Shown piece after piece: positions 62,037 to 62,119 of a stretch of 64,000 nt of DNA. The stretch is from Escherichia phage Eryne. The number at the start of each line of letters is the position of its first letter. Within the stretch, counting starts at the first letter, position 1. Below the pieces are notes generated by a model. That model saw only the letters and a program-made list of their open reading frames with translations, was not told the DNA's origin and did no database searches. The stretch lies in sequence record PQ529420; one strand, given 5' to 3'. The translations under genes and the position numbers were made by a program.

Positions 62037-62119
62037 AGCCGGGTAGATTTAAAAGAGTATGGTACTCAATATGGCTCCAAACCATAGATCAAGGGGTTCG
62101 ATTCCTCACCTTGCTGCCA
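62037..62119 (+). tRNA. tRNA-Trp-like (anticodon CCA) with irregular 5' half, CCA encoded
   Basis: anticodon arm TATGG-CTCCAAA-CCATA and T-loop TTCGATT are clear; acceptor AGCCGGG/CCTTGCT has one mismatch and about 9 extra nt precede the D-arm. Confidence 0.4.

Follow-up and report, generated by a model that had tools for sequence, protein, structure and literature searches.

Transfer RNAs in the 8/4 layout, whose acceptor stem has 8 bp and whose T stem has 4, are known for Ser, His, Cys and Sec (PMC5389517). Mukai et al. (2017, NAR) described 8/4 and 9/3 tRNAs, among them phage 8/4 tRNA-Ser and tRNA-His, whose D stems resemble that of tRNA-Sec and whose variable arms are long; tryptophan goes unmentioned (PMC5389517). 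Canonical tRNA-Trp, as represented by E. coli trpT and by the genes of phages Aswh_1, Roth01 and Deep Blue, is 71-78 nt long and has a 7/5 arrangement, a 2-nt linker at positions 8-9, an ordinary D arm and a free variable loop. Bacterial TrpRS identifies its substrate by C34, C35 and A36 of the anticodon, by G73 and by the first pair A1-U72, and in the Hirsh suppressor a G24A or A9C change in E. coli tRNA-Trp leads to the reading of UGA. The 8/4 tRNAs of Mukai et al. reportedly work in E. coli translation.

The DNA analysed here is a stretch of 64,000 nucleotides from Escherichia phage Eryne (PQ529420), referred to below as the window. At 62037-62119 on the plus strand it carries an 83-nt tRNA-Trp(CCA)-like gene with an encoded G73-CCA and the sequence AGCCGGGTAGATTTAAAAGAGTATGGTACTCAATATGGCTCCAAACCATAGATCAAGGGGTTCGATTCCTCACCTTGCTGCCA. 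The surrounding 3-kb tRNA cluster (59.4-62.4 kb) is 97-98.5% identical by BLAST to Escherichia phages of Justusliebigvirus (phi92-like, Stephanstirmvirinae), and ARAGORN places the start of the next tRNA (Ile) at 62125, 5 nt past the Trp gene. With canonical tRNA-Trp the gene and its homologues share the CUCCAAA loop, G73, a first pair that is mostly A1-U72, the TTCGANT T loop and the encoded CCA, but they depart from its length, its 7/5 arrangement, its linker, its D arm and its free variable loop. With (8/4) tRNAs and allo-tRNAs they share a 12-bp branch to which the acceptor contributes 8 bp and the T stem 4 bp, a D stem with a small loop and an occurrence in phage tRNA clusters; unlike those, they have Trp identity, no long variable arm and an additional helix between linker and variable loop, here called helix X. 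Bacterial tRNA-Sec (RF01852) is alike in its 8-bp acceptor and its long D stem with a small loop, whereas the Trp gene has the anticodon CCA and not UCA, a T stem of 4 and not 5 bp, no long variable arm, and scores that all lie below 47 bits. Armless mitochondrial tRNAs are likewise natural non-cloverleaf tRNAs that escape standard finders; those, however, lose arms and shrink, whereas the Trp gene gains nucleotides and a helix and keeps a GG hairpin and a normal T loop. In the open-access and bioRxiv literature we came across no account of a non-canonical phage tRNA-Trp or of helix X, the latter being absent also from a review of non-canonical tRNAs; an earlier description elsewhere is possible.

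All parts of the gene follow in order on the plus strand. The 5' strand of the acceptor stem, AGCCGGGT (nts 1-8, 62037-62044), pairs with the 3' strand ACCTTGCT (nts 65-72, 62108-62115). A single unpaired nucleotide, A9 (62045), separates this stem from the 5' strand of helix X, GAT (nts 10-12, 62046-62048), which has its partner ATC at 62088-62090. The AU-rich linker L1, TTAAAA (62049-62054; 5-6 nt across all homologues), leads to the D-like hairpin H, GAGTA-TGG-TACTC (62055-62067), which carries GG in its loop and is predicted by both MFE and RNAalifold folding, and linker L2, AA (62068-62069; 1-2 nt across all homologues), joins hairpin H to the anticodon stem. The anticodon arm (62070-62086) has a 5-bp stem, TATGG/CCATA, and a 7-nt loop, CTCCAAA. 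The region corresponding to the variable loop (62087-62092) consists of G (L3), the ATC strand of helix X and AA (L4), and is followed by a T arm (62093-62107) with a 4-bp stem, GGGG/CCTC, and the loop TTCGATT; discriminator G73 and the encoded CCA complete the gene (62116-62119).

The original prediction, of a tRNA-Trp-like gene with a CCA anticodon, is borne out by the arm TATGG-CTCCAAA-CCATA, with the anticodon at 62077-62079. The C-U mismatch that it placed in the acceptor stem is also present: in the strands AGCCGGG/CCTTGCT, C4·U69 adjoins a G5·U68 wobble. Extra nucleotides do lie between the acceptor and the D-arm, where on a 7-bp acceptor reading 11 nt (TAGATTTAAAA) precede the hairpin GAGTA-TGG-TACTC, against 2 in a standard tRNA; the spacing from an 8-bp acceptor to hairpin H is 10 nt. 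Their description as extra 5' sequence holds as to their presence but not as to their position, which is internal and not that of a 5' leader, and part of them (nts 10-12) takes part in a covarying helix with the variable loop. Of the T-arm that had been called canonical, the loop TTCGATT is so, but the stem has 4 bp and goes with an acceptor of 8 bp, as judged from position pairs 8:65 and 49:65 (paired in 20 and in 3 of 20 aligned sequences).

Standard tools do not recognise the gene as a tRNA. ARAGORN, which had been proposed as a check, found 15 tRNAs in the window (59495 to 62200) but called no Trp tRNA and nothing at 62037-62119, and it made no call for any homologue tested. The Rfam tRNA model (RF00005) gave 22.9 bits against a cut-off of 29, in a truncated alignment that starts at 62056 and drops the D arm, and both results bear out the predicted departure from the standard cloverleaf. 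Neither the window gene nor any homologue had a full-length Rfam match at or above cut-off, all matches being partial or sub-threshold. Within the tRNA clan the best match of the homologues was often tRNA-Sec (RF01852; 20-33 bits against a cut-off of 47), the window gene itself, with its CCA and not UCA anticodon, giving no match to that model, and Rfam families beyond tRNA and tRNA-Sec gave chance-level matches only. The features typical of RF00005 that we found are a 5-bp anticodon stem, a 7-nt loop with U33, the T loop TTCRANT and GG in a D-like loop; a 7-bp acceptor, a 5-bp T stem and a 2-nt linker before the D arm are absent. A covariance model (R1) was built from 20 homologues on their shared structure, and it scored family members at 63-93 bits (92.5 bits, E 6e-24, for the window gene), canonical Trp tRNAs from phages and other viral contigs at about 47-61 bits and other tRNAs at no more than 45 bits. 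The resemblance of the window gene to tRNA is far beyond chance.

Comparison of homologues provides the evidence for the fold. In an alignment of 20 sequences (A1), counting standard pairs, 86.9% of cells held a standard pair, compared with 61% in shuffles and 45-48% when partners were slid, and both-sided changes were seen in 18 of the 24 pairs. The covariation score was 0.635 against 0.19 in shuffles, and none of 500 shuffles reached 0.635. The fold stability of the window sequence alone was not above that of shuffles (z = 0.35). Six of the seven acceptor pairs 1-7 and four of the five anticodon-stem pairs showed both-sided changes, and the T stem (pairs 50-53:61-64) occurs in the compensatory variants GGCG/CGTC, GGAG/CTTC, TGGG/CCTA and AGGG/CCTT. 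Pair 8:65 was intact in all 20 sequences (UA 11, GC 5, AU 3, CG 1), and nt 8 was paired with nt 65 independently by RNAalifold and by the single-sequence MFE fold, whereas pair 49:65, on which a 7/5 reading would depend, was standard in only 3 of 20. The acceptor is therefore assigned 8 bp and the T stem 4 bp, 12 bp in total, and a 7/5 reading with A·A at 49:65 was ruled out in favour of 8/4. Invariant positions in A1 are A9, T33, C34, C35, A36, A37, G73 and CCA; the CCA anticodon and G73 are also kept in the members found later.

The acceptor stem is not uniformly perfect. Pairs 4:69 and 5:68 are non-standard in most lineages from proteobacterial phages, with two adjacent mismatches in the Certrevirus stem, whereas the stem is perfect in the Felix group. 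Beyond the 20 aligned sequences, 8:65 is non-standard in the Bacillus phages (A·C), in Paenibacillus (C·C) and in the MAG-binned contig L269 (G·A), and in these three clades two nucleotides stand ahead of helix X.

Helix X joins the nucleotides that follow A9 to those that would ordinarily make up the variable loop. Pair 10:47 is GC in 10 sequences, UA in 5, AU in 4 and GU in 1, and pair 11:46 is AU in 7, GC in 6, CG in 2 and UA in 1, with no unpaired case at either. A register scan of hand-segmented sequences from 11 lineages, covering 24 registers, found Watson-Crick pairs at both positions of the helix X register in 10 of the 11 lineages, through six different dinucleotides (GA, AG, GT, GC, AC and TG); none of 5000 permutations reached 10 lineages. 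The next-best register, TT with AA, was compatible with 6 of 11 lineages and a single dinucleotide type, without covariation, and the scan left helix X as the only partner for the linker region. For L1 itself, which varies as TTAAAA, TTAAAT, TTTAAT, TTAAT, ATAAT, TTAAGA and TTAAA, the comparison of homologues gave no pairing partner. About half of the lineages have a helix X of only 2 bp, and Av-05 uses a register one nucleotide away; further types, AGC/GCT, AAC/GTT, GAG/CTC and ACT/AGT, came later from Bacillus phages and MAG contigs. Five to seven nucleotides separate the anticodon stem from the T stem, 2-3 of them paired in helix X, and L4 is always 2 nt (AA, AG or CG).

Hairpin H covaries as well (GAGC/GCTC, GGAGT/ACTCC and TGCAG/CTGCA; CTC/GAG against CAC/GTG; GAC/GTC against GGC/GCC), and across homologues it has a stem of 3-6 bp and a loop of 3-8 nt with GG in every loop. 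The order shared by the family is thus an 8-bp acceptor, A9, the 5' strand of helix X, an AU-rich linker of 5-6 nt, the GG hairpin, 1-2 nt, the anticodon arm, 1-3 nt, the 3' strand of helix X, 2 nt, the 4-bp T arm, the 3' strand of the acceptor, G73 and CCA. In the predicted fold, helix X is nested, and the GG hairpin and the anticodon arm both lie within a second three-way junction closed by it. We regard this secondary structure of the Trp family as well supported by the comparative evidence.

Homologues were collected by BLAST with the window element and then with each new variant found. They are 81-84 nt long, all end in G-CCA, and occur in about 400 phage records at a coverage of at least 80%, a figure that sums the counts of searches with some overlap between them (53, 26, 41 and 233 records in four of the searches). 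The family is present in Stephanstirmvirinae of Klebsiella (KP13-26), in Vequintavirinae (Certrevirus POP15, CR9, CR3 and F1M1E, Mydovirus BIS47, Seunavirus PVP-SE1, UPEC06 and Avunavirus Av-05) and in Ounavirinae (Felixounavirus Mushroom, Mooglevirus Sf18 and KPS64, Suspvirus EcSzw_1 and CHB7, Hafnia phages and LPML1). A scan of IMG/VR for a Trp-tRNA pattern, followed by the covariance model, extended it to Bacillus Herelleviridae, with BCP8-2, TsarBomba and Thrax2 among 41 records. A second pattern scan added the IMG/VR clade L243 and three contigs from bacterial genome collections, two of them MAG contigs with arrays of 14-18 tRNAs and one from Paenibacillus; phage-like contigs binned with gut Bacillota carry members as well. 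The IMG/VR surveys cover the matches listed, their counts being lower bounds, and a first, narrower viral-contig pattern gave 4 loci. BLAST of the window gene against 5,426 complete E. coli genomes (20,395 records) gave no match, and an origin in the host, or a copy in an E. coli prophage, was ruled out on this ground.

Homologues always lie within tRNA arrays, flush with neighbouring tRNAs, and in almost all cases in an unannotated gap between annotated tRNAs; the gene is unannotated in the records of close relatives of Eryne. Independently, some depositors annotated a tRNA-Trp with identical ends in PVP-SE1 (81 nt), TsarBomba (84 nt) and Thrax2 (84 nt), and Bc431v3 also has a tRNA-Trp annotated at the corresponding spot, the tRNAs in the Bc431v3 paper being listed from tRNAscan-SE 1.21 and the structure passing without comment. 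No canonical Trp tRNA was called by ARAGORN in any carrier locus examined. Shigella phage Sf14 is reported to have 26 tRNAs for 19 amino acids, Trp alone being absent from the table (PMC12482277); by BLAST, Sf14 carries the non-canonical Trp gene, adjoining its tRNA-Ser. In Caeruleovirus, the 74-nt tRNA-Trp of Deep Blue (locus L147, 2059-2132) is canonical and stands where BCP8-2 has the 84-nt form (locus L146, 958-1041), both between tRNA-Leu and tRNA-Met. No obvious sequence likeness links the two genes, which suggests replacement by exchange.

We consider it probable that 62037-62119 is a functional tRNA-Trp(CCA) with a non-standard body, which would be transcribed with its neighbours, charged by host TrpRS and used to read UGG, and a translational role is likely on this sequence evidence. 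A consensus scan found a sigma-70-like promoter with a TG extension (TTGACA-18-TAGAGT, 10 of 12 matches) at 61270-61299 (+) and no promoter-like site on the plus strand between it and the Trp gene; it is the probable start of a polycistron of eight tRNAs, Gly-Gln-Pro-Phe-Leu-Met-Trp-Ile. The Trp gene would thus be transcribed with its neighbours from 61270, and host tRNA-processing enzymes would cut the tRNA out of the transcript. By sequence comparison, the 8-bp acceptor stacked on the 4-bp T stem preserves the usual 12-bp acceptor branch; the GG loop would dock onto the T loop, forming the tRNA elbow and keeping the L shape. Charging by host TrpRS is expected on the strength of known Trp identity elements, namely the CCA anticodon and G73, both invariant, and a first pair that is mostly A1-U72. 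U33, CCA, A37, G73 and the encoded CCA, together with the 12-bp branch and the normal anticodon arm, fit charging and decoding. A role as the Trp tRNA of the phage is further supported by the lack of a canonical Trp call in the carrier loci, by the exchange between Deep Blue and BCP8-2 and by the tRNA set published for Sf14. In infection the tRNA would then read UGG, so that the phage would have a source of its own for a tRNA that the host makes from a single gene and in low abundance. The rebuilt core may let the tRNA evade host nucleases or regulators that read the ordinary tRNA-Trp body, or may alter decoding. More tentatively, and with a doubtful chance of being right as a whole, the 8/4 body with helix X around the D-like hairpin and the anticodon arm could be a novel architecture kept for tRNA-Trp by phages of Gram-negative and Gram-positive hosts as an adaptation, either hidden from a host factor (a nuclease, a modification enzyme or a sensor) or changed in decoding (UGA).

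Other explanations either give the folded RNA another task or question the fold itself. It is rather unlikely that the gene makes a tRNA-like RNA that does not decode UGG but ties up a host nuclease, a modification enzyme or TrpRS in the manner of a decoy or sponge, or disturbs by mimicry the sensing of uncharged tRNA-Trp. Proteins that recognise a tRNA by its body would be expected to respond differently to a rebuilt core, the gene scores poorly under standard tRNA models, and phage tRNAs that counter tRNA-targeting defences are documented (PMC11555353). Such a role nevertheless fits less well the conserved decoding features (U33, CCA, A37, G73, the encoded CCA and the 12-bp branch), the filling of the single missing amino acid in tRNA sets of the Sf14 type and the replacement of a canonical tRNA-Trp at a syntenic site. 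A Hirsh-like function, in which the altered D/linker region lets CCA also read UGA with low-level read-through in phage genes, would be compatible with UGG reading and is still less probable. The non-canonical part (nts 9-26) falls in the same region as the Hirsh-type mutations, and in both cases a tRNA-Trp(CCA) is altered away from the anticodon; the Hirsh tRNAs, however, are point mutants (G24A, A9C) of a cloverleaf, whereas here the whole core is rebuilt and A9 is invariant. In the window TGA ends 14 of 72 long ORFs, the in-frame extensions beyond it are short (median 3.5 codons, maximum 47), and neither in-frame TGA nor stop usage gave a signal of UGA recoding or programmed read-through.

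Three further readings dispense with the proposed fold, and we hold each of them to be very improbable. The lack of a finder call, the acceptor mismatch and the unremarkable fold stability would suit a decaying pseudogene, a former tRNA-Trp drifting after a 9-nt insertion, but in at least five phage groups the gene retains its length and architecture even where identity falls to about 70%, and the compensatory changes in every helix, including the one made by the supposedly inserted nucleotides, exclude it. A standard cloverleaf through alternative acceptor pairing was also looked for, and the only option was AGTATGG at 62056-62062, without a D arm: a D-armless tRNA of about 64 nt, with the 19 nt ahead of it as a leader that RNase P would cut off. 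The Rfam tRNA alignment starts at this very position and the alternative strand pairs at 6 of 7 positions in Stephanstirmvirinae, including KP13-26; in all other lineages, however, it pairs at only 3-5 of 7, the 5'-most strand pairing at 5-7 of 7 everywhere, and this comparison ruled it out. The AGTATGG nucleotides moreover form the covarying hairpin H, and covariation with nucleotides on the 3' side is seen for the 5'-most strand, for nt 8 and for nts 10-12 alike. Removal of some 7-9 nt as a small intervening sequence would give a near-standard length and, on this proposal, a standard 7/5 tRNA, yet the 8/4 arrangement would persist after removal, and nts 10-12 covary with the variable loop and so are used in the folded RNA. 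To our knowledge, moreover, no splicing system for such a site exists in these hosts.

Standard finders usually miss the gene, so phage tRNA sets appear to be without tryptophan, and most annotations omit it in several large and much-used groups, among them Felix O1-like, phi92-like, rV5-related and Bacillus SPO1-like phages, which include many candidates for therapy. Phage tRNA counts, analyses of codon usage and tRNA adaptation and statements of the kind "19 of 20 amino acids" are accordingly off by one. The known 8/4 class would extend to tryptophan, and the helix between linker and variable loop would be a new structural solution in place of the usual tertiary core. The repeated use of this form for Trp alone suggests a selective pressure on tRNA-Trp. 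The family offers a natural test of what EF-Tu, the ribosome, RNase P and TrpRS need of the tRNA body, and a Trp tRNA with an unusual body may suit as a starting point for orthogonal pairs.

Other tRNAs in the cluster are irregular too, as the original prediction had stated. An 82-nt tRNA at 59870-59951 (+) with the anticodon loop CTTCTAA (TCT, Arg) received no ARAGORN call and scored 38.6 bits with the Rfam tRNA model. It is read as having no D arm because only 7 nt (TATCTCA) lie between its acceptor and anticodon stems, and a near-invariant 24-nt block, CGTTAACCGAGTAATTGGAGTATG, stands between its anticodon arm and T arm. Homologues occur in Felixounavirus Mushroom (L025, 2282-2363) and in loci L016 (45-126) and L008 (1702-1783), their acceptor and anticodon stems covarying. 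The Arg-like gene has a perfect sigma-70-like promoter (12 of 12) to itself at 59830-59858, one of three strong sites within the cluster on the plus strand, all with TG, the others being at 59970-59999 (10/12) and at 61270-61299; their number suggests several separate tRNA transcription units. The 90-nt tRNA-Ser(TGA) at 60015-60104 (+) is probably an 8/4 tRNA. Its 8:65 is A-U and its 49:65 only G·U, the CHB7 homologue has G-C and A·C at these positions, and the Hafnia and LPML1 homologues look 7/5; its best Rfam match is tRNA-Sec, at 35.3 bits and below cut-off. The tRNA-Asn(GTT) at 60671-60755 (+), of 85 nt, has a long class-II-like variable arm with about 13 extra nucleotides, which is unusual for Asn.

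Several records contain irregularities at the Trp gene or near it. A short "hypothetical protein" CDS overlies the gene in a number of them, including F1M1E (L013, 302-484) and UPEC06 (L019, 34-180), in both of which it runs on the opposite strand, and such CDSs are probably annotation artefacts. The RefSeq record of Salmonella phage Mushroom (L025, NC_041923) has its tRNA features on the strand opposite to that given by ARAGORN, with Tyr and His flagged pseudo. In the UNVERIFIED record of GE_vB_B3 (L016, 267-348) the Trp copy is one A short of all other Felixounavirus copies (82 against 83 nt), probably through a sequencing error; this record is labelled Ounavirinae at 109 kb, and two places in it match the query. 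Members of the Trp family at L269 2839-2921 (-) and L288 4595-4677 (-) score 86 and 77 bits and lie on contigs binned with Erysipelotrichaceae and Anaeroplasmatales MAGs. These contigs carry 14-18 tRNAs in 6-8 kb, including an amber-suppressor tRNA with a CUA anticodon that ARAGORN labels Pyl, and they look like fragments of stop-codon-recoding phages.
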